Below are positions 14,777-60,807 of a DNA stretch of 64,000 bases, one piece after another. This DNA comes from Candidatus Latescibacterota bacterium (GTDB lineage Bacteria; Latescibacterota; UBA2968; GCA-2709665), in the NCBI GenBank assembly GCA_963667175.2, contig CAXXXF010000002.1, positions 302,195 through 366,194 on the forward strand. Direction: 5' to 3'. Made by a program: the position numbers and the translations under genes. Below the pieces are notes generated by a model, which saw only the letters and a list, made by a program, of their open reading frames with translations, did not search any database and was not told where the DNA came from. Every line of letters starts with the position of its first letter. Position 1 is the stretch's first letter.

Positions 14777-14816
14777 TTAATTACCTCTGCGTAAAAATTA
14801 CGTGCGGAGGGACCGT

Positions 14817-15542
14817 ATGCGTCGTGCTGTCGGTTTCGTGATCATATTCCTCCTTGCGCCGGGGACTTCAAGTGCACAGGAGTTGGGTGCGAGTTTCTCT
14901 GGCGGTTATTCCATTCCTGGCGTCAGTCGGCTCTACTGCGGCAACGTTAGACCCGGAGATCGGGATCTGCGGGAACTGCGGACCGCGTGGCTCTACTGCG
15001 GTAGAGACAGCGAGGGGGATCTGCTGACCGCTCAAACGAATTTCCCTCGCATAAATGCAGGGCTTGTTCTTGCCGGGGACCTGTTCTTGCACGTCAATCA
15101 GTTCGATATGGGAATCGGAACCGCCATGTTTTCCAAAGGCGGGATCCCCGGCTCGTTAATCTCTGCGAACGACCTCAAGGAGAGAGTCGAAACGAAGGAT
15201 TTCACCAGGTCTTTCAGGGCAGTGTTTGTATTCATCCGGGGACGTGCGATGACGGACTCCACGTTAACGCCCACTCTTGGGTTCGGTATTGGCATATACG
15301 GGCTTCGGGAAAGCGAACCCGACGAGCGCCTCAATTGGGAAAATGGTCCGTTTTTCCAGCTCGTCGCGGGCGGCGAAGCCCGGATAAGGAAGAGTTCTTC
15401 CAGAGTTTTCACGGAATTCAGATTAAATCTCGCCGTATTCGACGAAATGCCGGAACCCGGCCTGGATATTATCAGATGTTGTGGATGGAACCAGGCCTAC
15501 GTATCGTGGACTTTCGCCATCGGCCTGAGGTTCGCCCGATAG
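14817..15542 (+). CDS. Secreted/outer-membrane beta-barrel-like hypothetical protein
   Basis: GGAGG RBS, signal peptide (…TSSA|QE), amphipathic strands (PTLGFGIGIY) and C-terminal FAIGLRF. Confidence 0.6.
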   Translation: MRRAVGFVIIFLLAPGTSSAQELGASFSGGYSIPGVSRLYCGNVRPGDRDLRELRTAWLYCGRDSEGDLLTAQTNFPRINAGLVLAGDLFLHVNQFDMGIGTAMFSKGGIPGSLISANDLKERVETKDFTRSFRAVFVFIRGRAMTDSTLTPTLGFGIGIYGLRESEPDERLNWENGPFFQLVAGGEARIRKSSSRVFTEFRLNLAVFDEMPEPGLDIIRCCGWNQAYVSWTFAIGLRFAR

Positions 15543-28363: not shown

Positions 28364-28367
<4 letters not shown>

Positions 28368-45054: not shown

Positions 45055-45149
45055 TTCGGAGGCTGCCGTTCTTCAGCCTCGGCAGTCGTCGTACAGGCAC
45101 GTACGCCAATAGCCAGCCACTGCGACGCGCATGCGCGACGTCCGGGGAA

Positions 45150-46274: not shown

Positions 46275-46417
46275 TATGGTCTAACTCGGAAACTCGAATG
46301 AAACGGCGACCGCACCGGTCGGTTTCTGCCGGCAGAATACCTCAGATATTACGCCATTTGTCCCCAAAAGACAAGTCGGCTCCGTTCATGATCAGGCATT
46401 TAACGGCCGTTCGATCC

Positions 46418-46554
46418 GGTCGTTTTCGCCTTGCGTACGGCGATTTTCACCAACATCTATAGGTGACGTGATTTTGAGGATTTGTCTAAATCCTGTAAAT
46501 ACCGATATTTAACAGCGGCGTCATCTTCTCCGTCAAACGGGTACGATACTTGCA
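46418..46554 (+). promoter_or_regulatory. Sigma54 promoter of pspA with tandem PspF-type upstream activating sites
   Basis: GGTACGATACTTGC (GG 46540-41, N10, GC 46552-53); GGTCGTTTTCGCC (46418) and GGCGATTTTCACCAA (46439) start 21 bp apart. Confidence 0.7.
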
Positions 46555-46646
46555 AGGAATGTCGGCAGGACCCTGAATAATTACAGGAAATCGGATTTTT
46601 CCACCCTTGTGGGGTCAAGAAGCCCACAATAGAAAGGAGAAAGACA

Positions 46647-47324
46647 GTGGCCAAAGGAATCTTCTCCCGCATGGCGGACATCGTCAAGGCCAACATCAAC
46701 GATCTTCTGAATCGCGCCGAAGATCCGGAAAAGATGATTCGGCAGATGATCCTCGAAATGGAAGAGGCCGTCAACAAGGCGACCGCGTCCGTCGGCACGG
46801 CCGTTGCCAACGAAAAACGCCTCGAGCGTCAATTGCTGGAGAAGACGGACCAGATCGAGTCCTGGCAGAAAAAGGCCGAATTGGCCGTCGAATCCGGCGA
46901 AGACGACCTGGCCCGGCGCGCCCTGGAACGAAAGGCGGCCTTTGAAAAAGCCGCCCGGGATCTGGAAGCCGCTTTCGACGAGAGCCACAAGACCTCCGAT
47001 CAGCTCAAGAAGCAATTGACGCAGCTCAAGTCCAAACTGGATGAGGCGCGCGCCCGCCAGGGCGCGCTCATCGCCCGGCGCCGCGCAGCCCAGGCGAGAA
47101 AGCAGATCGCCCAGGGTCTCTCCGGCATCGGCGATGACGCGTTTTCGAGCTTCGAGCGCTTCCGGAATCGGGTCGAGACCGAAGAAGCAGAGGCCCATGC
47201 GCACGCCGAAATCGCGGAGGGCGATCCTTCGCTCGAAGACTCGCTGGAAAAGCTGGAACGAAGGAACACCGTGGAAGAGGAACTCGAGGCCCTGAAAAAC
47301 AAGCTGCGGAAAACCGATGCGTGA
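46647..47324 (+). CDS. pspA: Phage shock protein A (PspA/IM30 family)
   Basis: GIFSRMADIVKANINDLLNRAEDPEKMIRQMILEME, WQKKAELAV...DDLARRAL, FERF and EEELEALK motifs; strong RBS. Confidence 0.95.
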   Translation: MAKGIFSRMADIVKANINDLLNRAEDPEKMIRQMILEMEEAVNKATASVGTAVANEKRLERQLLEKTDQIESWQKKAELAVESGEDDLARRALERKAAFEKAARDLEAAFDESHKTSDQLKKQLTQLKSKLDEARARQGALIARRRAAQARKQIAQGLSGIGDDAFSSFERFRNRVETEEAEAHAHAEIAEGDPSLEDSLEKLERRNTVEEELEALKNKLRKTDA

Positions 47325-47946
47325 ATGGCGAAGAATCCTGGACGAAATCGCTTATGAAATTGAAAAGGCGATTCGCGACGTCACAGCGGCCTGGCGCAAT
47401 ATGGGGGAAGACCGACCGATGCGGCAGAACGCACGGACGGATCGTCACCCGAGGTCGCGTCGGCCGGCTTTCCGATTCTCCGACCTGGCCACTGACGGGA
47501 GCTGCGCCATGCGAAATGCCCTCGGACACTTCCTGAATGCCGCCGCGGTGTTTTTTGTCTTCACCGCGATTTTTCCCTTCGTCATGGGCATTGTCGAACG
47601 GTCATACCACCCGGAGGCGCTGCTGTTTATCGTGTGTCTGGCCGGCGCTGTCGTCTTCAGGCTTGCCGGGCGAAAGGCGCACGAATCGGCCGACATGAAG
47701 CGATATGCGCAATACCAGCATCGCCTGCTCAGGCTCGCACGCGAAAAGAGGGGTAGCCTTACCGTTCTGGAAGCCGCGACCGATGGGAGAATGACCGTGG
47801 AGAAGGCTGGCGAGATCCTGCGCGCGTTGAACGAAAAGGGCAGCGCCGAAGTGCGCGTATCCGAATCCGGCCTCGTCGTGTACCACTTTCCTGAAATCGA
47901 ACGCGGTGCGGAGAAGCACGGGGCAAAACCGGTGGATGAACTTTGA
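47317..47946 (+). CDS. Hypothetical membrane protein (2 TM plus C-terminal winged-helix-like region)
   Basis: Overlaps the pspA stop; two hydrophobic segments; LLRLAREKRGSLTVLEAA...VSESGLVVYHFPE. Confidence 0.7.
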   Translation: MREWRRILDEIAYEIEKAIRDVTAAWRNMGEDRPMRQNARTDRHPRSRRPAFRFSDLATDGSCAMRNALGHFLNAAAVFFVFTAIFPFVMGIVERSYHPEALLFIVCLAGAVVFRLAGRKAHESADMKRYAQYQHRLLRLAREKRGSLTVLEAATDGRMTVEKAGEILRALNEKGSAEVRVSESGLVVYHFPEIERGAEKHGAKPVDEL

Positions 47947-47973
47947 TAGCTTTAATTTACACGGAGGGACGTC

Positions 47974-48189
47974 ATGTTTGAAGTCGGTATCGGCATTGCG
48001 CTGATCGTCCTCGCCACGGCGGTCCACAAATACGTGGAACGGCAAACGAAGGGTTCCGTCCCCGGAAAAGTCGAGGAGCGGCTGAACGCCCGGCTGGACG
48101 ATCTGGACCGGCGACTTACCGATATCCAGGAAATCATGATCGCGATCGACGAAAAGCTGGATCGAGGGAACACGAAGGAAACGTCGTAA
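47974..48189 (+). CDS. PspB-like small membrane protein
   Basis: GGAGG RBS; N-terminal TM followed by a coiled coil (RLDDLDRRLTDIQEIM), the PspB architecture; position downstream of pspA. Confidence 0.6.
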   Translation: MFEVGIGIALIVLATAVHKYVERQTKGSVPGKVEERLNARLDDLDRRLTDIQEIMIAIDEKLDRGNTKETS

Positions 48190-48306
48190 GGGACGGTGGA
48201 AGGCCGCTGGATACGTTAAATTAACTGCCACGTTGTCGCGACGCTGTGTTTACGTTTACGTCCGGTGGACTGAAGCATTTAACCAGGAACCATGAAAGGA
48301 TAACCC

Positions 48307-48483
48307 ATGTTCGCGAAGATTCTCGGCATCGTTCTCATCGCCATCGGCGCATATCTTGGAATTCCCGAAGTGATCGGGCTGTTCGGCGCGTCTCTGGAAA
48401 TCCTGTTCCTGCTCCTGAAATTGTCAGTCTCGGTCGTGTTGATTTACGTGGGTTACCGGCTGTTTGCAAGTGACGCCGTATAA
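48307..48483 (+). CDS. 58-aa two-TM membrane protein (below the ORF-track cutoff)
   Basis: GAAAGGA RBS; MFAKILGIVLIAIGAYLGIPEVIGLFGASLEILFLLLKLSVSVVLIYVGYRLFASDAV*. Confidence 0.7.
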   Translation: MFAKILGIVLIAIGAYLGIPEVIGLFGASLEILFLLLKLSVSVVLIYVGYRLFASDAV

Positions 48484-48514
48484 TTGACCAGCATTTCGAA
48501 AGGGAATCCCATCA

Positions 48515-49090
48515 ATGGAAAACGAACGGTATCTCGTCCGGAAGGCAGTCGCGGGAGACGCGGCTGCCTTCGGAGACCTTTACAAAGCCTGCCACGAACA
48601 GATCTACGCCACGATGGTTCGAAGAACGAGCGATCCCGATACCGCGGAGGATCTGATGCAGACCGCCTTTCTGCGGGCATTTATGGCCCTGGGATCGTAC
48701 CGCGGGGAGGCAGCCTTTGCCAAGTGGCTCACACGGATCGCACTCAACGTACACAAGTCCCATTTTCGCAAACAGCAGGTGCGGCGAAAGTGGATTCAAA
48801 CCACGGAGGATCCGGCTGCTCTTGTCGACGCCACGCGCCGGCCGGAACCGGGCGAGAATCCTGAACTCTCAGTCCAGCGAAACGAGCACCGCGACCTGGT
48901 CAGGAAGAGCATTCGGTCATTGCCGGCCAGATATCGCGAGGTACTCTGGATGCGTTACGTGGGAGACCGGTCCTACGAGGAGATTACCAGGGAGTTGCAG
49001 CTTCCGATGGGCACGGTCAAGACCTGGCTCAACCGTGGAAGATTTCAATTGAAGGGTGAATTCAGGAAGCGGGGGCTGGTTCCCTCCTGA
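48515..49090 (+). CDS. ECF RNA polymerase sigma factor (SigW/RpoE-like)
   Basis: GDAAAFGDLY, AEDLMQTAFLRA, FAKWLTRIALN, LPARYRE, SYEEI and PMGTVKTWLNRGR motifs. Confidence 0.92.
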   Translation: MENERYLVRKAVAGDAAAFGDLYKACHEQIYATMVRRTSDPDTAEDLMQTAFLRAFMALGSYRGEAAFAKWLTRIALNVHKSHFRKQQVRRKWIQTTEDPAALVDATRRPEPGENPELSVQRNEHRDLVRKSIRSLPARYREVLWMRYVGDRSYEEITRELQLPMGTVKTWLNRGRFQLKGEFRKRGLVPS

Positions 49091-49329
49091 GCAAGCGGAT
49101 TCCCAGTCCCCAAAGCGCAAGTTCGAGGACAGGATTCGCCGCGATCGGATTCCGCTCGGAGTCGCCCCGGGATTCGACCGCAATGACCGCCGGCATAGAA
49201 CGCCGGAGAAAACCGTCTCGAATATGGTTTGACGCGAAATACATCCTATGTCACGTTTCGCAGCACGGCGGCGTCTCGTGCAATCAAGCGGCGTGCAACA
49301 CGACGACGATCCCGGGAAAGGAGCCGGAC

Positions 49330-49935
49330 ATGGACGGATGGTGGACGGATTTGAGCGTCCTCAACCAGGTGTTCTACCTGTTGGCGGTTTTCTTCAGCGC
49401 GTTTTTCGTCTGGCAACTCCTGGCGGCCCTGTTTGGCATGGGCGGGTCCGACGTCGGCATTGGCGGCGACGCGGACCTTGGCGACGCGGGTCCCGAATTG
49501 AACGACGGACCCGGCGATGGCACGGTGGCTGCATTCAAACTGTTGTCTATCAGGTCTCTGATCGCCTTTGGCATGCTGTTCGGATGGGCGGGCGCCCTGT
49601 ATCTGCATAGAGGTCTGGACGTTCGGACCGCGATGTTTTACGCGTTTATCTGGGGTAGTGCAGGCATGGGGGTCGTGGCCTATTTCTTCCACGGTATCCG
49701 AAAGCTCACCGAGACTGGAAACGCCAGCCTGGATACGTGCGTGGGAACCTCGGGCGAGGTATATCTGAACATCCCCGAGGGCGGGACCGGTCAGGTTCGG
49801 GTGATAGAGAGCGGCGCGGTTGCCTACGTATCGGCTCGCGGCACGAACGGCATGTCCATCTCCGCGAAGACGCCGGTTCGGATTCTTCGCGTGGTGGATG
49901 CGACAACGCTCGAGGTCGAGCCGGAGTCGTGCTGA
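49330..49935 (+). CDS. NfeD-like membrane protein (flotillin partner)
   Basis: TM segments with a D/G-rich loop and C-terminal OB-fold (GEVYLNIP...GQVRV); directly upstream of a flotillin. Confidence 0.75.
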   Translation: MDGWWTDLSVLNQVFYLLAVFFSAFFVWQLLAALFGMGGSDVGIGGDADLGDAGPELNDGPGDGTVAAFKLLSIRSLIAFGMLFGWAGALYLHRGLDVRTAMFYAFIWGSAGMGVVAYFFHGIRKLTETGNASLDTCVGTSGEVYLNIPEGGTGQVRVIESGAVAYVSARGTNGMSISAKTPVRILRVVDATTLEVEPESC

Positions 49936-50092
49936 TTGCAATACGTTCGACTGGCCGGCGCCTGCGGTAGGTTTTTCATGCTGTCTCCTCCTGTCGATGG
50001 ATGAGACAGAAAGGGGGTTGCAGCCCGCACGGCGCCCCTTCAGGGACAGAACCGCAACAGAGGTGATCAATTCCATTCGAGGAGGGATCGTC

Positions 50093-51598
50093 ATGTCAAC
50101 CGAGACGATACTGACAATTATATCGCTGCTGGTGGTGTTTCTGCTCTTCGTGACGTTTATTTCCAGGTACAAGCGGTGCCCGTCCAACAAGATTCTGGTC
50201 GTCTACGGAAAAACCGGAAAAGGAGCTGCAAAGTGCGTTCATGGGGGCGCGGCCTTCGTGCTCCCGCTCCTGCAGGATTATGAGTATCTGGATCTCGAGC
50301 CGTTCGTTGTGCCCATCGATCTGGATAACGCCCTGTCGCAGGAGAACATCCGGGTGTCGGTACCTACAACCGTCACGGCGGCGGTGTCAAATCAGATGGG
50401 CGTGATGCAGAATGCGTCGATTCGCCTCCTGGGGCTCTCTCGAGACCAGATCGAGAGTCAGGCGCAGGACATCATCCTCGGCCAGATGCGGGCGGTGATC
50501 GCCACGATGGAAATCGAGGAAATCAACCAGGACCGGCAGGCGTTTATGTCCAAAGTCAATGAGGCGGTCTCAACCGAAATGGAGAAGATCGGCCTGGCAG
50601 TGATTAACGTGAACATCAAGGACATAGAAGACGAAAGCGGTTATATCAAGGCTCTCGGGCAAAAGGCCGCAGCGGAAGCCATCAACCAGGCGGCAATCGA
50701 CGTGGCCGAGCAGGAGAAGATGGGCAAGGTGGGCGTAGCCGAACGGGAGCGGGACCAGCGCACCGACGTGGCCGCCGCGAACGCGGCCGCCGAAATTGGC
50801 GAGGCCGAAGCTGCCAGGGATCGCCGCCAGAGGGTTGCCGCCCTGGAATCCGAAGCCCAGATCGGCGAGGCCGAAGCCACCAGAAACAAACGCCGGATGG
50901 TCTCTTCTCTGGATGCGGAGGCGGTCCAGGCGGAGGCCGACGCCGAATCGAAAAAGGCCGGCTATATGGCACAACAGACCGTGGCCGAGGAGGTCGCGCG
51001 GCAGAAGGGTCAGGAGGCCGCGAAGGCGGCGGACGGCGCGATCCGGGTCGCTCAGGAAAAAGCCGAAAAGGAGGCCGAGGAGGCCCGGGCGTTGCGGGAA
51101 GAGGCGCGATTGAGAGCCGAAATTGTCGTACAGGCCGACGCGGAAAAGCAGAAGCTGGTCGTACAGGCGGAGGCCGAGAAAGAGCAGAGGACGCTCGTAG
51201 CACAGGGGGAGGCCGCCGCCATCCTCGCCCAGAGGCGAGCCGAAGCAGAGGGTACCCAGGCCATACTGGACGCCAAGGCCGAGGGTTACAGGGAGTTGGT
51301 CGCCGCGTGCGGAGGTAAAGACCAGGCTGCGGCAGCCTTCCTCATCGTCGAGCGGCTGACCGAGGTCGCAGGCATTCAGGCAGAAGCCATTCAGAATCTC
51401 CCCCTGGAGAAGATCATGGTCTGGGACGGCGGCGGCGGACAGGGGGGCATGTCCAATCTCGGCCAGCGCCTGATGGGCGCCATCCCGCCAATGCACGAGC
51501 TGGCCAAACTGGCGGGCCTGGAACTGCCCGAGTTTCTGGGCAAAGCCACAGGCGACGCAAATACAGACGTCGACGACGCGGGCGCATCGGAATCTTAG
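50093..51598 (+). CDS. Flotillin family SPFH protein
   Basis: RYKRCPSNKILVVYG, GGAAFVLP, ALSQENIRV, IEEINQDR and an AE-rich coiled coil; GGAGG RBS. Confidence 0.9.
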   Translation: MSTETILTIISLLVVFLLFVTFISRYKRCPSNKILVVYGKTGKGAAKCVHGGAAFVLPLLQDYEYLDLEPFVVPIDLDNALSQENIRVSVPTTVTAAVSNQMGVMQNASIRLLGLSRDQIESQAQDIILGQMRAVIATMEIEEINQDRQAFMSKVNEAVSTEMEKIGLAVINVNIKDIEDESGYIKALGQKAAAEAINQAAIDVAEQEKMGKVGVAERERDQRTDVAAANAAAEIGEAEAARDRRQRVAALESEAQIGEAEATRNKRRMVSSLDAEAVQAEADAESKKAGYMAQQTVAEEVARQKGQEAAKAADGAIRVAQEKAEKEAEEARALREEARLRAEIVVQADAEKQKLVVQAEAEKEQRTLVAQGEAAAILAQRRAEAEGTQAILDAKAEGYRELVAACGGKDQAAAAFLIVERLTEVAGIQAEAIQNLPLEKIMVWDGGGGQGGMSNLGQRLMGAIPPMHELAKLAGLELPEFLGKATGDANTDVDDAGASES

Positions 51599-51620
51599 CG
51601 CTTCATTCGGGAGCCGTGGC

Positions 51621-53249
51621 TTGAACAGACCCGAAAAATCGGAGAGCCGCCCCGCGGCCGCCAACCGTATCGGCATCGCACAAACCCTGCCGGAATCGGC
51701 GAACGAAGAAGCCAGGCGACGCGGTCGTGACGGCGATAGCGCGATGGAGGCGGGAGACCTGTCGAAAGCCGAGGCCGCCTACATGGCGGCCCTGGCGGCC
51801 GATGACGGGAATGTGCGGGCGCGCCACAACCTGGGCGTTGTCTACTTCAGGCAGGACAACTGGCAGGACGCAATGGACTGCTTCACGCGTTGCCAGGAAC
51901 TTGCGCCCGAGAACGGTGCGGACCTGCACTACAAGATCGGTCTCTGCCGTTTGAAGGCAGGCGTCGACGGAGCGTCGCAGGCCTTCGAAACTGCAATCGC
52001 AACGAATCCGGACCATCTGGAGGCGCAGTTGCAGTTGGCGCTTCTGCGGGCCGAAGGCGCGGGCTCGGGATCGAATGGCAGGCAGCGGGCGGTTGAAGCG
52101 CTTCGGTCTATACTTGAGGCCGTGGACCGTGACGTGCCCTTCGACAACGTGGACCGCGCCTGTTTCCTGTTGGCCAGCTTTCTCGACGACCTTCCGGAAA
52201 ACGTCGACGAAGCGATCACGGTATACCGTCGCGGGCTCGAAGCGAATCCGCTGTTCGCCCCGGGTCATAACAACCTCGGCGTTTTGCTCATGCAGACGGG
52301 TCAGACCCTCCAGGCCCTGGGCGCGTTCAAGATCGCCATTCAGCTCGAGCCGGACTATGCGCTGCCCTACAGGAATCTGGCGCATCTTCTCTTCGATCAC
52401 ATGAGCTCGGCCCAGATGGAACGGGAGTACACGTCCATCATCGAAGAATTCGGCACGCAGGCAGCCGCGGTGCTGGCGCGCCTGTCCCTTGAACTCATCG
52501 ACATGGGACGCGGACAGGTGGGAGAGAGCCTGTACACCCGGGGTCACCAGATCAAGAACCTGATGGGTCTGGTGGGGAGCCGAACCAGGCGGCTAATTCG
52601 AAGGATCCCGCAGGAGGACGCCCTTCTCGACGACCTGCGAGACATCGCCCGCGATCAGGAGCACATCTTCGACCAGTGGGTGGCCTATCTGCGCAGCATG
52701 AAGCAGGATCCGTTGAATCCCTCGCTGGTGGATATTCCGCAGTTCGTGAGCAAAATCAAAGAGGCCGTTGCCACCCGCACCGGAGGCGCGGCGCTCCGTT
52801 TCGCGTCCGAACCGCAGGTCCCGCAGGTCAAGGTCGATCCCGGCATGCTGCGGGAAGCCGTCACGAACCTGATTCTCAACGCGCTGGAAGCCGTTGAGGA
52901 AAACGGAGCGATCACCGTACAGGCCGGCCACGACAATAGACGAGGGTCGGTATTCATCGAGGTGGAAGACGACGGACCGGGCATTTCCGAAGAGATCAAG
53001 GCCAGGATCTTCGATCCCGGGTTTTCCACCAAGGAAAAAGGCAATGGCTTCGGGCTGAGCATCTGTTCGCGCATCGTCTCCGCTCACAGGGGAACCCTGC
53101 GGATGATCAGCCGTCCGGGCGCCGGCGCCGTGTTCCGCATCGATCTTCCGGTGGACTTCGAGCTCGTTTCCGAAACCGAAAGCATCGGTTGGAGCGGCGA
53201 TCCACTGTCCGCCTCGAAGCTGTCCCTGGCCGAGGAATTCATCGAGTAG
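51621..53249 (+). CDS. Soluble TPR-repeat sensor histidine kinase
   Basis: TPRs (ARHNLGVVY, HNNLGVLL, YRNLAHL); H-box HQIKN, NLILNALEA, DDGPGI, IFDPGFSTK and GNGFGL; no TM segment seen. Confidence 0.88.
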   Translation: MNRPEKSESRPAAANRIGIAQTLPESANEEARRRGRDGDSAMEAGDLSKAEAAYMAALAADDGNVRARHNLGVVYFRQDNWQDAMDCFTRCQELAPENGADLHYKIGLCRLKAGVDGASQAFETAIATNPDHLEAQLQLALLRAEGAGSGSNGRQRAVEALRSILEAVDRDVPFDNVDRACFLLASFLDDLPENVDEAITVYRRGLEANPLFAPGHNNLGVLLMQTGQTLQALGAFKIAIQLEPDYALPYRNLAHLLFDHMSSAQMEREYTSIIEEFGTQAAAVLARLSLELIDMGRGQVGESLYTRGHQIKNLMGLVGSRTRRLIRRIPQEDALLDDLRDIARDQEHIFDQWVAYLRSMKQDPLNPSLVDIPQFVSKIKEAVATRTGGAALRFASEPQVPQVKVDPGMLREAVTNLILNALEAVEENGAITVQAGHDNRRGSVFIEVEDDGPGISEEIKARIFDPGFSTKEKGNGFGLSICSRIVSAHRGTLRMISRPGAGAVFRIDLPVDFELVSETESIGWSGDPLSASKLSLAEEFIE

Positions 53250-53252
53250 TCT

Positions 53253-54659
53253 ATGAAAGCGCAAATCGTCGTTGCCGACGACCAGCCCGAAATCCTGGAG
53301 ATGCTGAGGCGAAGCCTTCAGGTGGATGGCCGGACCGTGAGGACTTTTCCAACGGGCAGAAAGGCGTTTGCATACCTGCGAGAGCACGTTTCGGACGTGG
53401 ATATGGCCGTTCTGGATATCGACTTCGGTCCCACCGAGCCGGACGGTCTGGAAATTCTGAGAAAGATTCGCGACCTCGTGCCGGATTTGCCGGTGATCAT
53501 TCTCACGGGGAAAGGCACCGTGGAGAACGCCGTGGCTGCCCTGCGCATGGGCGCTTCCGACTTTATCGAGAAGGATACCTATATTGAAGACCGGCTTGAA
53601 CTCAGCCTTGAAAAACTCGACCGCGTTCTCGCCGTCCTCAGGGAGAACGCCCGGCTTCAGGCGCGGGTGAAGGATCTGGACCGGGAGAACCGCTACTACC
53701 GGGACGAATTCGGAAAGAAGTACAGGACCGTCAATGCCAGCCCCCAGATGCTGCGGATCATGCGGCAGGCCGAGCGCATTGCTTCGATACCACGGCCGGT
53801 TCTGGTACTCGGCGAACCCGGCACCGGGAAGGAGCTTGTGGCCGCCGCGATTCACTACGGCGGCGTACGCGGCAATCGACCGTTCGTTAAGGTCAATTGC
53901 GCGGCCCTTTCCGCCAACCTGCTGGAAAGCGAACTCTTCGGCCACGAGAAAGGCGCGTTCACCGGAGCGACCGAAGCCCGACCAGGACGGTTTGAAGCGG
54001 CCAACGGCGGTACGCTGTTGCTGGACGAGATCGGCAACACCACACCCGAATTCCAGCAGAACGTCCTTCGCGCCATCGAGTACCAGGAGATTCAACGGGT
54101 GGGCGGGGCCGCGCCCACCAGCGTGGACGTCCGGATCATCGCCGCCACGAATGCCGATCTCGAACGTGAGATTGCCGAAGGCCGCTTTCGCCGGGATCTC
54201 TACGACCGCCTCCGCTTCGAAGTGATCCGCATTCCCCCGCTTCGCGAACGGCGTGAAGACGTCCAGCCGCTTGCCGCGTTCTTCGTCGAGCAAATCGTCC
54301 GGGAGGTGCCGGGACTCACCTTGCGTCCGTTTTCCGACGGCGCCCTCCGACACCTGCAGGGCTACCCGTGGCCCGGAAACGTGCGCGAGCTCAAGTTCGC
54401 CGTCGAACGCGCGGCGATCATGGCCACGGGCGCATCCATCGAATCCCAGGATTTGCCGCCGGAAATCACCAGCGGAGATCCGGCGCCGCCGGGAGACGGG
54501 TTCGACGCTCAGGTCAAAGCCTTTGAGCTCGGGCTGCTCAGAACCGCACTGGGCAACGCGAACTGGAACCAGCGCAAGGCAGCCGAATCGCTCAGTCTGA
54601 GCTACGACCAGTTCCGCCACTTCTACAGGAAGTATGAACTTGCCAATGAAAGAACCTGA
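53253..54659 (+). CDS. Sigma54-dependent activator: receiver domain plus PspF-like AAA+ and HTH
   Basis: REC (ADD, VLD, LTG, EK), GEPGTGKE and GAFTGA; PspF-like [19 protein letters not shown] and [18 protein letters not shown]. Confidence 0.9.
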
Positions 54660-54761
54660 CGTTCGTTATTGTCATAAGGAGCCCCTGGCGCGGCTTCGCT
54701 GTGCTCAGCCGCAACGAAAAAAGGTGGAGGTGAACGTCTGAGCCCGTTGGACGGCGCAATC

Positions 54762-54820
54762 ACTCCCCCCTTGAGGGGGAGTCGCCTGCCTGCGCCAAGC
54801 GGAGCGCGGCAGGCAGGCAG
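54762..54820. repeat. REP-like palindromic elements
   Basis: ACTCCCCCCTTGAGGGGGAGT and CCTGCCTGC...GCAGGCAGG inverted repeats; the latter resembles the core of the MITE. Confidence 0.55.
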
Positions 54821-54966
54821 AAGCCGAGCCGTCAGGCGACGGCTTATGCGGTGGGGGGATTCCAACGCGTGAACGTGAGCAAGAAGCACGAATAAATATG
54901 CACGCATTTTGCGAAGAAGCCTTACCGGAAGATGCTAAGGGAGGGCATGGATTTGACTATTTTCAC

Positions 54967-54994
54967 TTGACGCAGATCATGAATCCGGTATATT
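54967..54994 (+). promoter_or_regulatory. Putative sigma70 promoter
   Basis: TTGACG-N16-TATATT upstream of the 55146 gene. Confidence 0.4.
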
Positions 54995-55145
54995 TGGATC
55001 GAACCTCGCGCTTTGATGCTTATTGCATCTATTCCGGTCCCGGATCTTCTCCGGGAATCCTGCGGGTTCACAATCGGAACGGGACAACACCGCCCGGCTC
55101 GATTGCTCTTCAAGGAAACGGTTTGCCGCTTACGAGGAAACAACA

Positions 55146-56936
55146 ATGAGCGAAGCCGAAAACGGCCCTTGCGGCCTGATTTTCCCCTCAGACGATTCGG
55201 AAGTTTCCCACGTAGAACTGTGCCTTGCGGACGCTGGTTTTTCCAGTGAAGTTCGGGCATGGCTGGTTCAGATATTTGAACGCCAGGACTGTTTTGGCGA
55301 TTCCGGCGGCGCGTCCGTGTTCAGGGACGATTTCGCGCACCTTTTCGAGCACGTCCTTCCCGGTGTCGTGGAAGGGCTGAACGAACCGGATCCATCGGAG
55401 CACCTCGCACAGACCCGCCTCGCGCTCCTCTTCAGTTTTCTGCTTGGCTTCGGACCCGTCTACAGCGAAGGGGTTCGGCCTGGCCGTGGGCTGGTGAAAT
55501 CAGGTGAAGACTGGGTTGTTCCCGCGTGGGTTGGCGCGTTTCAAAGGCAGGCGAAATTTCGAGCACAACGCCTGGATTGGCGCAAGCTCGTGGAGATAAG
55601 AAACGCGCGCGCTTTCCTGTTCTTCGACCTCGTTCCATTTCTCTTTCCCGAAGGCCTGCCGCTGGATCAGATCGTCAATCCGGCCTTGTTGAATCCGATA
55701 CCGCGAGAGGAGTGGTCCAGTACGGATTTTGAAGACCCCGATCAGCTCGAATTCTGGCTCAAATGGCGTTTCGCCGCAGACTCGGAACGTCGTGAGATCA
55801 TAAACCTGAACACCCTGGAAGCGGCGTTTTCCGATTTTGCGGAGGATGTTCTGGGCGACCGGATTCTCGGACTCCTGAATGCGATCGAATGTGCGATGAG
55901 CATTGGATTTGCGTCGGCTTCGGAACGTCTGAATCCTTCGGGTGACGGGTGGCGGGTGGTTTCGCGTGAACTAATCCCGTACCTGGACCTTCTGAGTGAG
56001 AAACGGCCCGAGTCCGGGTCAGAGCGATCTTCGTTGCTCAAAGCCTGGTGGCGGTTGTCGGCGGCGATTTACTACAGGGGTATGGGTGGGCTGGAACCGG
56101 ATCTCTCCGACGAACTGAGAAACCGGCTTGTGGACAGCGCCGCCAGGCACGTCGGCATGCTGCGGAAGGTGTTGCGAGAGACGCCTGAGGAATTTACGGG
56201 AAGGGATTCGACGGGCGCGCCGGTTGCGGATTTCTACGAAAGAGCCTTTGAGGCGCTGATCGTTTTCGCCGCGCCCTGGAAATGCTTGAGGTCCCTCCTG
56301 CTGGCTTTCGCGGAGATGCGGGTTCCCGCCGTTGCATCGGACCTTCGGCCGTGGCCCGATGCTGACAGAGAACCTCCGCCGCATCCCTACAGTCGAATCC
56401 CGACGTGGATCGGAATCGCCATGTATCCGCAGCATCTTCGGGATGAACTCAGACGGGACCCGCACTTGAAGGGATTGCGTGAAGCATTTGCCAAATTCTG
56501 CCTCGAACGGCTCAAGACCCGGAGAACCGATGCTGAGCCGACCAGACAAACGGACCATCCCGCGGACGAACGATTCGTCGAACCCCGCCGAGCGTGGAGA
56601 CAGTGCTACGTGCAGGCGCTGGCGGCATTGCGAGTCAATCCCGGCGGGCGGGCGCACAGAACGCTGTTCTGGCTTTCCAGGAACGATCCTGATGAAACGA
56701 TCCGAACACTCGCGAGAAGGGCGCACGGCCGGATTCGTCATCTCAGTCCCGACAGGCCAAATCGGAATCGGGGCGCCTCGCCTCGTCGAGCCCTGTTCGA
56801 AGCCTTCTGGTGGCTCCGCCAGGCGCATCTCCTGACACTTGGAATAGAGATCGACCAGGCGGGCGCCATGCGAACGCGAAGAACGGAATTGCATCGGACA
56901 CGAGAGAAGCGTGATCGCCTCGATGGGCAGGCGTAG
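55146..56936 (+). CDS. Large hypothetical alpha-helical protein upstream of the viperin unit
   Basis: GAGGA RBS before ATG 55146; 596 codons; HEAT-like C-terminal segment (LSRNDPDETIRTLA); no catalytic motif recognised. Confidence 0.75.
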   Translation: MSEAENGPCGLIFPSDDSEVSHVELCLADAGFSSEVRAWLVQIFERQDCFGDSGGASVFRDDFAHLFEHVLPGVVEGLNEPDPSEHLAQTRLALLFSFLLGFGPVYSEGVRPGRGLVKSGEDWVVPAWVGAFQRQAKFRAQRLDWRKLVEIRNARAFLFFDLVPFLFPEGLPLDQIVNPALLNPIPREEWSSTDFEDPDQLEFWLKWRFAADSERREIINLNTLEAAFSDFAEDVLGDRILGLLNAIECAMSIGFASASERLNPSGDGWRVVSRELIPYLDLLSEKRPESGSERSSLLKAWWRLSAAIYYRGMGGLEPDLSDELRNRLVDSAARHVGMLRKVLRETPEEFTGRDSTGAPVADFYERAFEALIVFAAPWKCLRSLLLAFAEMRVPAVASDLRPWPDADREPPPHPYSRIPTWIGIAMYPQHLRDELRRDPHLKGLREAFAKFCLERLKTRRTDAEPTRQTDHPADERFVEPRRAWRQCYVQALAALRVNPGGRAHRTLFWLSRNDPDETIRTLARRAHGRIRHLSPDRPNRNRGASPRRALFEAFWWLRQAHLLTLGIEIDQAGAMRTRRTELHRTREKRDRLDGQA

Positions 56937-57066
56937 TTGACCAACGACAACACTTTAGATGGCAAATTACACCAAGTACAAGGAAGTGGCCGGTGTATTC
57001 ATTTCCATAAGATAATTATTATAAATGACTTAATTGAAATACAGAAGTATTGGCATAATTCTTGCA
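56930..57066 (+). promoter_or_regulatory. Sigma54 promoter with PspF-type upstream sites and an IHF-like site, in front of the small gene/viperin
   Basis: TTGGCATAATTCTTGCA (GG 57052-53, N10, GC 57064-65); GGCGTAGTTGACCAA (56930) and GGCAAATTACACCAA (56961); TATAAATGACTTA (57020) is one mismatch from the IHF consensus. Confidence 0.72.
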
Positions 57067-57172
57067 TTTAATGGATGGAGATTCCGTAGAGTAACCCGGT
57101 CTGCTCATCAATTGGGAACCAAAGTGTCCCCCAGGGCCGGCCCGATTCCACGAGAAAGGAGGTGAAAAGAAA

Positions 57173-57355
57173 ATGGCCAAATCAAGCGGGAATAGAGGCT
57201 CGCAAGCCGATCGTGACAATCGCGCCAATCAGCTGAATCCCAACAACGATGCATATCGGAAGGCGCGCGGCATTGCGAACTTGCCCAGCAAGACCGGAAA
57301 TCCTTCCGGCCGCGGCCGCGGCAATGCCGCGCCCAGGGGAGGTAAGGGCAAATGA
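57173..57355 (+). CDS. 60-aa basic Gly/Asn-rich protein with a DNRANQLNPNNDAY motif
   Basis: Very strong RBS (GAAAGGAGGTGA); MAKSSGNRGSQADRDNRANQLNPNNDAYRKARG...RGGKGK. Confidence 0.75.
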   Translation: MAKSSGNRGSQADRDNRANQLNPNNDAYRKARGIANLPSKTGNPSGRGRGNAAPRGGKGK

Positions 57356-57361
57356 TGTATC

Positions 57362-57430
57362 GGCGCAGGGGCTGGCCATTGCCCGGCACGGACGTTTGCA
57401 ATCGGTCAATCCCTGCCCGCCTTTTCGTTT
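57362..57430 (+). terminator. Long hairpin with U-tract between the small gene and viperin
   Basis: GCAGGG..TGGCCATTGC pairs with GCAAT(C)GGTCA..CCCTGC, followed by TTTTCGTTT. Confidence 0.5.
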
Positions 57431-57564
57431 CGCCAGATGCGTCGCACTTCGAGGCTCAATAGCCTCGCGCCTGATCCCCACCGGATTGTGCTACGACGCA
57501 TCCTTTCAGGACAACCGGAACGGCAACATCGTTCCTTTAATGTCAAATGAGAAAGGAGTTTAAA

Positions 57565-58461
57565 ATGGCCTTCGGCAATTTGCCATCTCCCTTGCAGCAG
57601 AAAATCCCATCAGTCAACTTCCATCTCTGGGAACCATGCAACATGCGTTGCAGGTTCTGTTTTGCTACGTTTCAAGACGTAAAGCGTGATATGAACCTGC
57701 CAAAAGGTCATCTGCCCAAGGATGATTGTATCGTAGTTGTAGAGAAACTTGCCGAAGCGGGCTTTGATAAGATTAATTTCGCCGGTGGAGAACCCACACT
57801 TTGCCCATGGTTGTCTGATTTAATCAGGCGGGCGAAATCTCACGGAATGGTCACTTCCGTCGTTACAAACGGATCGAGGATTACCGATCAGTGGCTGGGC
57901 AGTCTGTATAGGTGTCTTGATTGGATCGCCCTGAGCATTGACACCGTTGACTCGGGTAAATTGAAACGACTGGGGCGTGCAATCGGCGGCAAAGATGCCA
58001 TTTCCCCGGAAGAGTATCTTCGCATTGCCAGCGACGTAAAGCGACGCGGGATTCGGCTGAAAGTCAATACTGTCGTTACTTCCATTACGTGGCTGGACGA
58101 TTTTGCCGACTTTATACGGCTGTTAAAACCCGAACGCTGGAAGATATTTCAGGCACTTCCCGTCAAGGGCCAAAACGACCGGCATATTGCTGATTTCGCG
58201 CTTACAGCAAAGCAATTTGACGCGTACGTTCAACGCAATCGCATCGTCAGGGAGGAGAGCATCCGCGTCGTCCCCGAGAGCAATGAACTGATGACTGAGA
58301 GTTACACAATGGTTGATCCTGCGGGACGATTTTTCGACAACGCAAAGGGCGCCCATTCCTACAGTGACCCCATCCTGGAGGTTGGGATTGACGCGGCCTT
58401 GAAGTCCGTGTCGATCGACCCTGATCGGTTTCTTCGGAGGGGAGGAAAGTATGACTGGTAA
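57565..58461 (+). CDS. Prokaryotic viperin (antiviral radical SAM ddhNTP synthase, pVip)
   Basis: SVNFHLWEPCNMRCRFCFATF (N-Phi-H-X4-CX3CX2CF), KINFAGGEP, VTNGS, WIALSID, KVNTVV, PERWKIFQ..GQND and PESNELMTESYTMVDPAGRF; AAGGAG RBS before ATG 57565. Confidence 0.93.
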   Translation: MAFGNLPSPLQQKIPSVNFHLWEPCNMRCRFCFATFQDVKRDMNLPKGHLPKDDCIVVVEKLAEAGFDKINFAGGEPTLCPWLSDLIRRAKSHGMVTSVVTNGSRITDQWLGSLYRCLDWIALSIDTVDSGKLKRLGRAIGGKDAISPEEYLRIASDVKRRGIRLKVNTVVTSITWLDDFADFIRLLKPERWKIFQALPVKGQNDRHIADFALTAKQFDAYVQRNRIVREESIRVVPESNELMTESYTMVDPAGRFFDNAKGAHSYSDPILEVGIDAALKSVSIDPDRFLRRGGKYDW

Positions 58462-59044
58462 ATTCATCGTCATCTAAAGCCCTGATGCAGTCGGCAAATC
58501 TACCCTAGCGCGCGAATTGGCCAATCGGCTTGGCGCGGAGCTGCTCGAATGCCCTCCACGGTTGGAGGCCCCCGGGTTATTGGGGGCGGAGCTGCGGAGT
58601 CATTTCGACAAACGACCTGCCGAACAGCGGCGCGCTTACTACCGGGCGGCGAATCTCGTCGCTAGTGAAATTGCCGAAGGTACACTGCAGGAGAAGCATG
58701 TCGTGATGGACCGTTATTGGCCGAGTACGGTTGCTTTCGCCACAATGGACGTTGACTCAAACGGTTACCGGAAATGGCAGGGTCTTTATCCGCCGGAACT
58801 CCGCAAGCCGGATGCAGTTGTCCTGCTTACGGTAGATGAGGAGAATCGTTCGAAGAGGATGCGGAAGCGCGGTGAACCTGCCACGACCGAGGAGCAGTCC
58901 CTCGACGAACACCTTGCACACCGCAATAACATACTTTGCGCGTACCGCAAATTCAACCCGATCGAGATCGATACGAGCAATCGCAAGCCTGGTGACGTCC
59001 GTGAAGCTACCCTCGATGAACTTCGCAGTGCAAGGTTGTTTTAA
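58451..59044 (+). pseudogene. CMPK2-like/thymidylate-kinase-family nucleotide kinase with an in-frame TAA at codon 9
   Basis: From ATG 58451 it reads MTGKFIVI*SPDAVGKSTLARELANR, in frame with ORF 58517-59044 (RRAYYRAAN, VVMDRYWPST, ELRKPDAVVLLTV..ENRSKRMRKRG). Confidence 0.8.
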
Positions 59045-59060
59045 CTGAACTCCCATCTCC

Positions 59061-59091
59061 AACGCCCCCGGCGATGTTCGCCGGGGGCGTT
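59061..59091. terminator. Perfect GC-rich hairpin after the kinase
   Basis: AACGCCCCCGGCGA-tgt-TCGCCGGGGGCGTT. Confidence 0.6.
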
Positions 59092-59140
59092 GGTCGGGCG
59101 GGGTTCACCAGCATCTCCCAATCGCTACCGCATAATCTTC

Positions 59141-59220
59141 GTAGGGGCAACCCTTGTGGTTGCCCTGGTTAATGCGTACGCCCACGGACGCCGATGCGGG
59201 CGGGACGCCCGCGCTCCCAG
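59141..59220. repeat. REP-like elements (GTAG-type and GCGGGCGGGACGCCCGC-type)
   Basis: GTAGGGGCAACCCTTGTGGTTGCCCT and GCGGGCGGGACGCCCGCGCTCCCAG palindromes. Confidence 0.6.
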
Positions 59221-59488
59221 GGGAGCGACGCGGCGAATGGCCGGTGGCTGGAAGGAAAGCGTCAATAAACGACGGCGAGACGCCCTGACGACGTTTGTCG
59301 GGGCGTTCGTTTTTTTTGATTCGAAGAATCCACAAACAAGATGGTTTCGGCAGTACGGGTATTGCGTTATATTGTGGTCGTCTGAATTCAACGAAGAAAC
59401 CAGGCTGCGATTCGTTTTCCACCTGGATCTGATAAAGGCATCGAAGACCGCGTGCAGCGCGTGGTCGGGCGAGCGGTATGGACCAGAT

Positions 59489-59830
59489 ATGTTCAAGGAA
59501 CTGGACGTAATCGCGCTTACAGCCGAAGTTCCACTCGATCACATTTGGGATGTCCCGGACACCAGCCCGCTGATTGAGAAACGCAATCCGGGGGACGGGC
59601 TGAAAGTCGGCGACGTCGGCACGATTGTATGTATCCAGGGCAACGGGGAAGCCCTCGAAGTCGAATTTCTGGGTCCGGACGGCAACACGATGGCTATTGC
59701 CACGATTTCGCCATCACAGGCCCGACTGGCCACGGAAGAAGATCTCACGAAGCGATCTCTTCTGAAGGAAGTCGGCAGTCCGGCCTTATCACGGCCTCAT
59801 GAAAGAATGGGAAAGAAAGAGCCACTGTGA
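59489..59830 (+). CDS. DUF4926-like domain protein
   Basis: MFKELDVIALT...GLKVGDVGTIV...EALEVEFLGPDGNT pattern. Confidence 0.7.
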   Translation: MFKELDVIALTAEVPLDHIWDVPDTSPLIEKRNPGDGLKVGDVGTIVCIQGNGEALEVEFLGPDGNTMAIATISPSQARLATEEDLTKRSLLKEVGSPALSRPHERMGKKEPL

Positions 59831-59994
59831 GGATCGTGAATTCATCGCGCCCGCCAGGTTGCGGTTCGTCCTGGCGTTCGGTGTGTTGAGCGATAATGCG
59901 AGACTGCCAACCCGTCATGGGAATTCCCGTGGACAGTCTCTACCGGCGGGTTTCTGCGTTCTAGATACGTGAATCCGGTTGCAGGGGAGGTGCT

Positions 59995-60807
59995 ATGAAC
60001 GTTGCCGTATTCGGCGCGGCAGGCTGGCTCGGGCGGGCGGCGCTGGCCGCTCTGGACGAGAACCATCGAATCCGGGCGTTCGACTACGGTCCTCCGGCCT
60101 GGCAAGCCTGGAACGATACCGACGGTGAATGGACGGGCGGCGAGGTCGTTCATGGCGATATCGTGGAATTTGAACCCGTCCACCGCGCCGTTGAGGGAAT
60201 GGACGCGGTCCTGCACATGGCGGTGTACCATTCGGACGAACCCGGCGCCCACGGCGTCGACGACAGGAAGCCCTTCCTCATCAACGTGAAGGGCCTCTGG
60301 AACGTGCTGGAATCCGCCCGCCGGCACGGCATCGGGCGGATCGTGCACATCGGCTCCTGTCAGACCGCCCACCCGAAAGGGATCTTCTTCACGGCCGACG
60401 TCAGGCGGCCCGACGGCGGCCTCTACGGCGTCACGAAACGTCTTCAGGAAGAAATGTGCCGGCAGTTCCACGACGCGTTCGGTCTCCGCATTATCGTACT
60501 CCGGCCGGACTACATCGTCGACAGCAGACTCGGCATCGGCCGGTACAGGGAAAGACTGGGTACCGAAGAGCGCCCCTACCGACAGGGCTGGGTCTGCCGG
60601 CACGACCTTGCGGAGGCTTGCCGCCTGAGCCTGGAATCCGAAACCATCGATTTCGACGTTTTCCACGTCGTGGGGACACCCGGCGCCGAGAGGACCTGCA
60701 ACGTCGCACGGTCCCGAGATATCCTCGGCCTTGAATACCGGGGAAATCTGGAACAGTACCGAACCGGCGACGACGTGGAAAAGAGAGACAGCCACGATCT
60801 GAAATAA
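59995..60807 (+). CDS. NAD-dependent epimerase/dehydratase family protein
   Basis: GAAGWLG, DAVLHMA, INVKGLWNVLE and YGVTK (YxxxK) motifs. Confidence 0.88.
   Translation: MNVAVFGAAGWLGRAALAALDENHRIRAFDYGPPAWQAWNDTDGEWTGGEVVHGDIVEFEPVHRAVEGMDAVLHMAVYHSDEPGAHGVDDRKPFLINVKGLWNVLESARRHGIGRIVHIGSCQTAHPKGIFFTADVRRPDGGLYGVTKRLQEEMCRQFHDAFGLRIIVLRPDYIVDSRLGIGRYRERLGTEERPYRQGWVCRHDLAEACRLSLESETIDFDVFHVVGTPGAERTCNVARSRDILGLEYRGNLEQYRTGDDVEKRDSHDLK

Follow-up and report, generated by a model that had tools for sequence, protein, structure and literature searches.

In Escherichia coli, the Psp (phage-shock-protein) response is controlled by PspF, a bacterial enhancer-binding protein (bEBP) that consists of an AAA+ domain and a helix-turn-helix (HTH) domain only. 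The pspF gene is divergent from pspA. An upstream site, an AT-rich spacer and a sigma-54 promoter precede pspA, and genes for small membrane proteins follow it. In the available part of PMC3791423, residues Y51, L52 and W56 of PspF are given as the patch on which PspA docks. This article examines a locus of a Candidatus Latescibacterota bacterium that has counterparts of these elements. The locus lies in a stretch of 64,000 nucleotides (contig CAXXXF010000002.1, positions 302,195 to 366,194 of the forward strand), which is referred to as the window; positions are counted from its first letter. Downstream of pspA and on the same strand, it encodes a soluble histidine kinase with tetratricopeptide repeats (TPRs), and an activator that joins a receiver (REC) domain to PspF-type AAA+ and HTH domains (Table 1). 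With a probability of about 0.72, judged from the sequences, these two proteins would form a two-component Psp circuit that switches on pspA, and would be the regulatory part of a locus for the Psp (phage-shock/membrane-stress) response.

The likeness to PspF–PspA(BC) of E. coli comprises the clade and motifs of the AAA+/HTH part, the sigma-54 promoter of pspA with its upstream site and AT-rich spacer, and the small membrane proteins encoded after pspA. Unlike its E. coli counterpart, the activator has an N-terminal REC domain, lacks L52 and W56 and scores below the cut-offs of the PspF equivalog models; its gene follows that of the cognate kinase on the strand of pspA, and no Pfam match to PspB or PspC is found. 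LiaFSR–LiaIH of Bacillus and other pspA-linked two-component systems likewise put a PspA homologue under the command of such a system and encode small membrane partners in the operon; the LiaFSR type also involves a LiaF-like inhibitor. As far as the available parts of PMC11237479 and of a 2021 preprint (10.1101/2021.02.15.431232) describe them, they rely on a membrane kinase and a REC–HTH regulator, whereas the window encodes a soluble TPR kinase and a sigma-54 AAA+ activator. NtrB–NtrC, ZraS–ZraR and AtoS–AtoC share the order REC, AAA+, HTH and the adjoining kinase; their AAA+ domains group elsewhere (see below), and in the present kinase TPRs replace the PAS or periplasmic sensor. A further type of relative is represented by the CARF-fused activators, in which PspF-like AAA+/HTH domains follow an N-terminal sensor domain; accordingly named is the PADLOC model RtcR_PspF2, which matches residues 83–463 of the window's activator with 340.8 bits. 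Those proteins carry CARF and occur with restriction-modification or Rtc genes (available part of PMC4012209), whereas the present one carries REC and occurs with pspA.

The accessible text of PMC11237479 describes variants of PspF that carry an ACT or a PAS domain, and membrane-kinase/REC–HTH systems beside pspA. The full-text literature gave no REC-bearing PspF with a TPR kinase, supplementary tables such as Table S3 (gene neighbourhoods) of PMC11237479 lying outside the search, and no published description of REC-bearing PspF-like proteins from metagenomes. According to the portion of the 2021 preprint that is available, descriptions of PspF have so far been limited to Enterobacteriaceae, and outside this group PspF-like proteins are probably untied to the Psp response. 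The present locus counters this view: in a set of related loci, mostly labelled Latescibacterota, an activator of the PspF clade has a fixed place beside a sigma-54-driven pspA.

The activator and its PspF-like clade

Three Pfam domains are found in the activator: Response_reg (residues 5–110, E 4.8e-20), Sigma54_activat (PF00158, residues 161–322, E 1.1e-62) and AAA_lid_14 (residues 331–410). Its gene is the only bEBP gene inside the window. The family considered here has 78 members, namely the window protein and 77 proteins from the related loci described in the next section. The preliminary description of this DNA had called the N-terminal receiver intact, and this applies to the whole family; D9, D10, D55, T85 and K107 are unchanged in 78/78 activators, with the acidic pocket, the phospho-acceptor Asp and the Thr/Lys switch all in place. 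Asp55 is the predicted phospho-acceptor. The GAFTGA loop occupies residues 234–239 and reads GA[FY]TGA in every member (78/78).

PspF-type motifs in the AAA+ and HTH regions had likewise been pointed out, and an alignment with 11 bEBPs of E. coli K-12 supports this assignment, as the motifs are shared with PspF alone. They include IEYQE (IEYGE in PspF) and ATNADL. A ten-residue motif pairs with DLLDRLAFDV of PspF, where the remaining E. coli bEBPs have DL[FY][YH]RL[NS]V, and an 18-residue motif on the HTH side pairs with NQKRAAELLGLTYHQFRA of PspF. The window activator and PspF are also the only two proteins in this alignment whose loop behind the lid helix is longer by one residue.

The docking patch, in contrast, differs from that of PspF. 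HYGGVRG of the activator aligns to HYLSSRW of PspF, which confirms the earlier reading and puts Gly at the position of Trp56. In the family as a whole this position is occupied by R (37 members), K (26), S (7), A (5), Q (2) or G (1), and in 0/78 by W. The Y51 position has retained Y in 73/78 activators; the L52 position is G in 73/78. Since the docking residues are absent from the family, the direct brake that PspA puts on PspF in enterobacteria is presumably not used at the W56 loop.

The placement of the AAA+ domain was examined by maximum-likelihood trees on the AAA+ columns (window residues 160–405). In a tree with the 11 E. coli bEBPs, the family and PspF form a clade with support of 100/99. 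Support is 100/100 once Sinorhizobium NifA, Aeromonas PspF and a REC-bEBP from a Manganitrophus plasmid are added, and again 100/100 in a tree with 24 further representatives. The identities of the NifA and Aeromonas PspF references were confirmed by NCBIfam cut-offs (the Aeromonas PspF control scores 531.1). With delta lnL 49.3 and p 0.00096, an approximately unbiased (AU) test rejects a tree in which the family groups with NtrC, AtoC, ZraR, GlrR and the Manganitrophus protein. Hence the bEBP phylogeny, which had been suggested as a check at the outset, sets the AAA+ domain with PspF and rejects an NtrC/AtoC-type grouping. The Manganitrophus plasmid protein (H3 in L090), tried as a relative on account of its high tblastn rank, is generic AtoC/NtrC-like and falls outside the clade.

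Profile and plasmid searches give a similar picture. For the AAA+/HTH part, the NCBIfam ranking is PspF (TIGR02974, 345.5), NifA (334.6), NorR (295.0), RtcR (294.8), AtoC (287.2) and NtrC (280.5), all of them below cut-off. A tblastn search of 72,556 plasmids returned 2080 records with a bEBP match. Among the 60 best of these, 52 overlie a gene whose annotation is pspF or Psp operon activator, with 45–48% identity over 93–97% of the query, HTH included. By these sequence comparisons, the AAA+/HTH part of the activator is assigned to the PspF clade and not to the generic NtrC/AtoC proteins.

The clade is larger than the named PspF proteins. When the AAA+/HTH part was used to search 1.84 billion representative proteins, a tree with 24 of the matches defined a clade of 28 rows (100/100). 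DLxDRLxF occurs in all members, and most of them, not all, have a [ST]Y[DH]Q[FLM]R-type motif in the HTH. The clade comprises E. coli and Aeromonas PspF together with one 335-aa relative, 8 rows of the present family, 14 other proteins of 447–492 aa and 3 further short proteins; forms of 447–492 aa thus account for 22/28 rows. Among these long forms, Response_reg (PF00072) is listed for the 8 family rows and is found in 10/14 others at E <= 1e-5. Trp56 is limited to the three-row, REC-less PspF branch. Unnamed REC-bearing PspF-like proteins from metagenomes, such as those of the P0265 cluster (members titled Kofleriaceae, some labelled PspF by JGI), resemble the window activator in architecture and length and share the DLxDRLxF and [ST]Y[DH]Q[FLM]R-type motifs, and W56 is missing from all of them. 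Such proteins, which are undescribed, thereby come to notice in large number. Judging from these sequences, PspF-like proteins with a REC domain are frequent, and the W56 patch seems to be a trait of the branch without REC.

The preliminary description had spoken of a PspF ‘converted’ to a two-component system. This is not supported. Because REC-bearing forms are the majority of the clade and Trp56 is confined to the REC-less branch, the change may well have run the other way, and canonical PspF is at least as likely to have lost REC as the present family is to have gained it. The tree gives no resolved branching order at the base of the 28-row clade.

The TPR kinase and its linkage to pspA

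In the window, 3 nt separate the kinase gene from the activator gene (51621–53249 and 53253–54659, both on the + strand). Pfam recognises several TPR families at kinase residues 38–233 and HATPase_c (PF02518, E 1.3e-23) at residues 406–511; TPRs are the sole input domain. The protein is without a hydrophobic segment, its top 19-residue Kyte–Doolittle mean being 0.99, vs 2.43 for TM209, a membrane protein of the same locus. Pfam and hydropathy are thus in agreement with the initial view of an adjacent kinase that has only TPR input and no transmembrane (TM) segment.

An alignment with 21 relatives, which is also the basis of the AlphaFold model and of the locus scan, provides the evidence for an intact catalytic half. 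His309, in the motif YTxGHxIKNLMG, is unchanged in 21/21 relatives. N416, N420, D450, G452, G454, G474, G476 and G478 are also unchanged, and may be read as the N, G1 and G2 boxes; an AEEFIE tail at the C-terminus is conserved. The AlphaFold model (pLDDT 79.5) has TPR helices at residues 29–260, a helical hairpin bearing His309 at 263–360, and an alpha/beta domain at 368–510. In Foldseek comparisons the N-terminal half resembles TPR superhelices, and the C-terminal half, at E 3e-13 to 1e-10, resembles the cores of ZraS, CckA and HK853, each composed of a dimerisation and histidine phosphotransfer (DHp) domain and a catalytic and ATP-binding domain. The catalytic core is nearest to AtoS and ZraS (NCBIfam, Foldseek). 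The modelled hairpin would therefore correspond to a DHp domain with His309 as the predicted phospho-acceptor.

With the kinase alignment, one genome per species was scanned, yielding 80 loci with up to 10 kb on each side. Sixty of the 80 are labelled Latescibacterota, and most others are metagenome-assembled genomes labelled Gemmatimonadota. pspA, which is not mentioned in the preliminary description and in the window sits 4.3 kb upstream of the kinase gene, is found upstream and on the same strand in 76/80 loci; the other four contigs have at most 2.6 kb of upstream sequence. Whether the pair is linked to pspA in relatives had been named as a point to be checked, and the linkage holds. It spans kinase identities from 90% to 37–45%. 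The activator gene comes directly after the kinase gene in 78/80 loci (the remaining two contigs stop first), and the gap between the two is −4 to 66 nt in 71/75.

Three layouts can be distinguished. The first consists of pspA, TM209, small membrane proteins, kinase and activator; the second has an additional gene for an extracytoplasmic function (ECF) sigma factor before the kinase; the third, found in the window, has an ECF sigma factor, an NfeD-like gene and a flotillin gene at this place. ECF sigma genes are present in 42/80 loci and flotillin genes in 32/80. In 35/74 loci, the distance from the end of pspA to the kinase gene is under 1.5 kb. In one compact locus for which the open reading frames (ORFs) were listed (L044), a TM209-like gene and two small ORFs fill this gap, and the last of them overlaps the kinase ORF. 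A TM209-like gene is present in 74/74 loci in which both pspA and the kinase could be placed, and relatives of the small coiled-coil protein lie between pspA and the kinase in 71/74, often as 2–4 tandem copies. The best explanation of these gene orders would be an ancestral unit made up of a sigma-54 promoter, pspA, TM209, one or more small single-TM coiled-coil proteins, the TPR kinase and the REC–PspF-like activator, with a cassette of ECF sigma, NfeD-like and flotillin genes inserted before the kinase in the window's lineage.

The promoter of pspA is conserved along with the gene order. A GG-N10-GC element with at least 8/11 consensus bases lies 63–139 nt before pspA in 75/76 loci; the exception has 46 nt of upstream sequence. 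Matches of at least 10/11 stand before pspA in 62 loci, vs 5 such matches elsewhere in 1,526,484 nt (both strands). Across the related loci, this is the sole conserved sigma-54 promoter within 10 kb of the kinase–activator pair. The candidate upstream activating sequence (UAS) is a block about 100 nt before the −24 element, with an AT-rich stretch in between, and its dyad is where the activator would bind; bEBP promoters commonly have this arrangement. Every subgroup has such a block, and dyads at the equivalent position elsewhere include CGCCA-N6-TGGCG with flanking TGGCCA and CACC-N8-GGTG with flanking TTGGT/ACCAA. No single palindrome is common to the 74 pspA upstream regions; CGCCA-N6-TGGCG was counted in 22, CCAAT-N2-ATTGG in 18 and TTGTC-N7-GACAA in 8, figures that are inflated by kinship. 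A second palindrome further upstream in the window is of the last type, which occurs in only these 8/74 regions; it may be a distal activator site or belong to the divergent amidase gene.

A number of observations weigh against a Psp circuit. Pfam finds no HTH_8 in the activator, and no HisKA in the kinase at E <= 0.01. Canonical PspF equivalog cut-offs are missed (TIGR02974, 345.5 vs 443.55; PRK11608, 290.4 vs 529), the NifA score nearly equals that of PspF (334.6 vs 345.5), and in a sequence search of the PDB the top match is Azotobacter NifA (265.5 bits over 304 residues), with PspF at 249.9 bits over 227 residues. The tree references are few, comprising 14 named proteins of which 13 are proteobacterial. 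The window's copy of the pspA promoter matches at 9/11 positions (GGGTAC) and is the weakest of its group, the dyads vary among subgroups, and no rpoN gene lies inside the 64 kb window. Some of these points would suit a different explanation, in which a generic NtrC-type pair lies near pspA by chance and controls some other sigma-54 regulon, with pspA activated by a different bEBP. Besides the missed cut-offs, this would accommodate the AtoC, NifA and NtrC models coming within about 10 bits for the whole protein, and the five ORFs, one of them for an ECF sigma factor, that separate the window's pair from pspA/TM209; moreover, a view of 10 kb on each side of the relatives leaves distant targets invisible. 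However, a chance neighbourhood is improbable in view of the co-linear pspA in 76/76 loci with enough sequence, over the full range of kinase identities, and of the apparent single operon behind a sigma-54 promoter in 35 loci. The clade support and the AU test, which place the AAA+ domain with PspF, and the lack of a further conserved sigma-54 promoter within 10 kb also speak for a Psp circuit.

Table 1. Features of the Psp locus and its surroundings in the window (aa: amino acids; nt: nucleotides).
Feature	Position	Strand	Size, evidence and remarks
Palindrome TTTGTC-N7-GACAAG	46357..46375	+	Conserved block in 12 close sequences; sole match with 0 mismatches in the window
Candidate UAS, dyad TTTTCGCC-N8-GGCGATTTT then CACCAA	46422..46453	+	Block conserved between the window and 11 loci close to it
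Sigma-54 type promoter of pspA, GGGTACgatacTTGCA	46539..46554	+	GG and GC spaced right; first base 108 nt before the start codon
pspA (PspA/IM30, bacterial ESCRT-III), presumed regulated effector	46647..47324	+	Pfam PF04012 PspA_IM30, E 2e-48
TM209, conserved membrane protein	47317..47946	+	Start overlaps the pspA stop; TM segments 68–120
Small single-TM protein with C-terminal coiled-coil motif RLTDIQEIMIAIDEKLD	47974..48189	+	71 aa ORF; PspB-like layout
Small hydrophobic protein	48307..48483	+	58 aa; two TM segments by eye; tblastn relatives in many, not all, loci
ECF sigma factor	48515..49090	+	Pfam Sigma70_r2 and r4; best NCBIfam model SigW, below cut-off
NfeD/YuaF-like membrane protein (putative label)	49183..49935	+	TM segments; co-occurs with the flotillin gene
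Flotillin (SPFH/Band 7)	50090..51598	+	Pfam Band_7, E 1e-27; ends 22 nt before the kinase gene
Soluble TPR histidine kinase	51621..53249	+	542 aa, TTG start; Pfam, alignment, hydropathy, AlphaFold, Foldseek
REC, PspF-clade AAA+ and Fis-type HTH sigma-54 activator	53253..54659	+	468 aa; Pfam, alignments, trees
Second sigma-54 type promoter, TGGCATaattcTTGCA	57051..57066	+	One mismatch; AT-rich spacer; precedes small ORF 57173–57355

Proposed signal flow and possible inputs

The proposed circuit can be set out as a series of steps, for which domain integrity, synteny and promoter conservation argue. The cytoplasmic kinase would autophosphorylate at His309, and the phosphate would pass to Asp55 of the activator. 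The AAA+ domain of the phosphorylated activator would then form a ring at the upstream site and remodel the sigma-54 RNA polymerase, allowing the pspA promoter to open. In the compact layout, kinase and activator would be co-transcribed with pspA, which would result in positive autoregulation. The wiring in these loci would thus proceed through phosphorylation and not through PspA docking, and would offer a natural comparison of one AAA+ activator clade controlled either in cis (by REC) or in trans (by PspA). Heterologous or in vitro tests are required, because the organisms are known only from metagenome assemblies.

This scheme raises the question of what a kinase without TM segments senses in membrane stress. 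The most speculative step is that the TPR domain would sense such stress via a partner protein of the same locus. Candidate partners are TM209 with its conserved C-terminal tail, free PspA, and the small membrane proteins with coiled-coil motifs; the kinase's own AEEFIE tail is a further candidate input. The acidic C-terminal tails among these candidates recall the peptides bound by TPR clamp domains.

TM209 has an N-terminal helix, two TM helices, a cytoplasmic winged helix and a conserved C-terminal tail; in the model (pLDDT 81.2) the winged helix spans residues 147–202. The tail reads EKxxA[KR]PVDEL in the window's group (EKxxAKPVDEL in the window itself) and EKxWSRGVESA in the compact group. 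Attempts to assign TM209 to a family gave only a sub-threshold SHOCT-like match in Pfam (18.1 bits vs a cut-off of 27), and a search of the ESM Atlas returned only unnamed clusters. A Foldseek comparison with the PDB gave no match at E <= 0.001 (best E 0.011). One of the weak fold matches is the human ESCRT-II winged helix (3cuq_A; 60 columns, rmsd 1.5, 30% identity, E 0.019), which is not significant and serves as a lead only; the likeness is curious since PspA is the bacterial ESCRT-III. The small membrane proteins could not be identified as PspB or PspC, the 71-aa protein having no Pfam match at E <= 10 and the others matches at chance level only. The window's PspA scores 183.6 with TIGR02977, under the cut-off of 242.95.

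Among the candidate partners, PspA itself would give rise to negative feedback. In such a scheme free PspA holds the TPR kinase off, or in phosphatase mode, and its recruitment to damaged membrane by TM209 and the small membrane proteins frees the kinase; the PspA–PspF logic would thereby be copied as a phosphorelay. This would parallel E. coli and mycobacteria, where PspA binds its own regulator (PMC3791423 and PMC11237479, in the parts available). TPRs, the sole input of the kinase, are protein-binding modules, and the N-terminal region of PspA is nearly invariant across the family. Such conservation is, however, expected from the membrane function of PspA alone, and other candidates are conserved as well, among them the tails of TM209 and of the kinase (AEEFIE) and the small coiled-coil proteins. 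Because the W56 docking patch is missing from the activator, any feedback by PspA must enter elsewhere. On balance, control of the kinase by free PspA is possible but rather unlikely.

A related and more doubtful reading extends this to the history of the clade. The PspF-like proteins would be ancestrally two-component, and REC-less PspF would be derived, having swapped REC for in-trans inhibition through W56. Latescibacterota would have kept the old circuit, with the TPR kinase reading the assembly state of PspA either directly or via the TM209 tail. TM209, being membrane-anchored, equipped with a winged helix and translationally coupled to PspA, could then be the membrane adaptor of PspA. 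If true, this would constitute a cytoplasmic, protein-sensing route of membrane-damage signalling that dispenses with a transmembrane sensor kinase.

For the two-component Psp circuit, a phage protein had also been proposed as the ligand of the TPRs. In its full form, this proposal holds that the kinase is an Avs-like sensor of phage proteins, and that the pair switches on PspA and/or the viperin and kinase genes downstream of it (see below) during infection. Psp was discovered as the response to a phage protein, pIV (10.1101/2021.02.15.431232, in the part available). Between the pair and the viperin gene, moreover, lies a second, near-consensus sigma-54 promoter (57051–57066); it has one mismatch, and such sites number 4 in the window vs 1.27 expected. 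A half-site like that of the pspA UAS (56961–56975) is found 76 nt before it, and from its sequence this promoter is a possible further target of the activator. Pfam also reports TPR-S (sensor TPR) on the kinase, weakly (20.8 bits, cut-off 27.6). Nevertheless, the proposal is very improbable. By chance alone, about two half-sites as good as this one would be expected per window. Of the related loci, the closest one (L001, at 15175) alone has kept the second promoter, which there precedes genes for a beta-CASP nuclease and an SNF2 helicase and not viperin; viperin is found in 0/80 related loci. Pfam finds no STAND NTPase or effector domain in the kinase, which does not have the make-up of an Avs/STAND-type sensor. 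Neither the kinase nor PspA nor the membrane proteins match any PADLOC model. Finally, the kinase–activator locus lies among housekeeping genes; a P-type ATPase gene flanks it in 37/80 loci and an amidase gene in 39/80, and this fixed place points to core-genome behaviour, unlike that of a mobile island. A phage-protein ligand is thus not borne out.

Neighbouring genes and minor observations

The order of ECF sigma, NfeD-like and flotillin genes in the window recalls the yuaF–floT operon of Bacillus, which is controlled by SigW. An ECF sigma gene without flotillin is found in 10/80 loci, and in the full-length ones it lies directly before the TPR kinase. The protein encoded at 49183–49935, for which Pfam and NCBIfam give no match, is presumably NfeD/YuaF-like; the label is taken from the appearance of the sequence and from the pairing of NfeD with flotillin, no tool having matched it. 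The true start of its ORF is probably internal. The flotillin scores 140 bits with the FloT model, below cut-off; its ORF begins at 49820, and the start codon is uncertain.

Downstream of the activator gene, the first ORF of note (55146–56936), between the activator and the second promoter, encodes a 596-aa protein without a Pfam, NCBIfam or PADLOC match, conserved only in L001 (85% identity). Behind the second promoter (57051–57355) follows an ORF of 60 aa that contains the motif DNRANQLNPNNDAY and has a tail rich in Gly and Arg, again without a Pfam match. In L001 (15175–15690), the same promoter is followed by two small ORFs that contain the two halves, each after a GGGAACC..AGTGTCCCC element; because these halves are separate in L001, the 60-aa ORF of the window looks like a fusion.

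The next gene encodes a viperin (pVip; 57547–58461), with 307.6 bits for NF038283 against a cut-off of 180; its best PADLOC model is a viperin–kinase fusion (E 3e-111). Next to it, at 58517–59044, comes a thymidylate-kinase-like gene that is truncated. Since the two are absent from all 80 related loci, they look like a recently inserted antiviral pair. A DUF4926 domain is encoded after this pair (59090–59830). In L001 (18273–21626), DUF4926 forms the N-terminus of a large SNF2-type helicase, encoded behind a beta-CASP/metallo-beta-lactamase nuclease. What follows the Psp locus seems to be a variable, defence-island-like spot.

As regards other elements, a scan for intrinsic terminators gave 16 in the locus vs 12.3 expected, which is uninformative, and an Rfam search of positions 45000–60000 gave a single match at chance level. 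A cluster of GC-rich hairpins just after the activator gene (54745–54860), e.g. CACTCCCCCCTTGAGGGGGAGT and GCCTGCCTGCGCC..GCGCGGCAGGCAGGC, was seen by eye and missed by the terminator scan; it may be a terminator or a REP-like element. A further sigma-54-like element, TGGCACggttcTTGAT, lies at 14761–14776, 26 nt before an ORF (14802–15539) without a Pfam match. It is located in the stretch of lowest GC content of the window (0.527), its −12 GC is missing, and it may be due to chance. Unrelated to the kinase locus, a second TPR-rich protein of 590 aa, with many TPR families, is encoded at 28364–30133.

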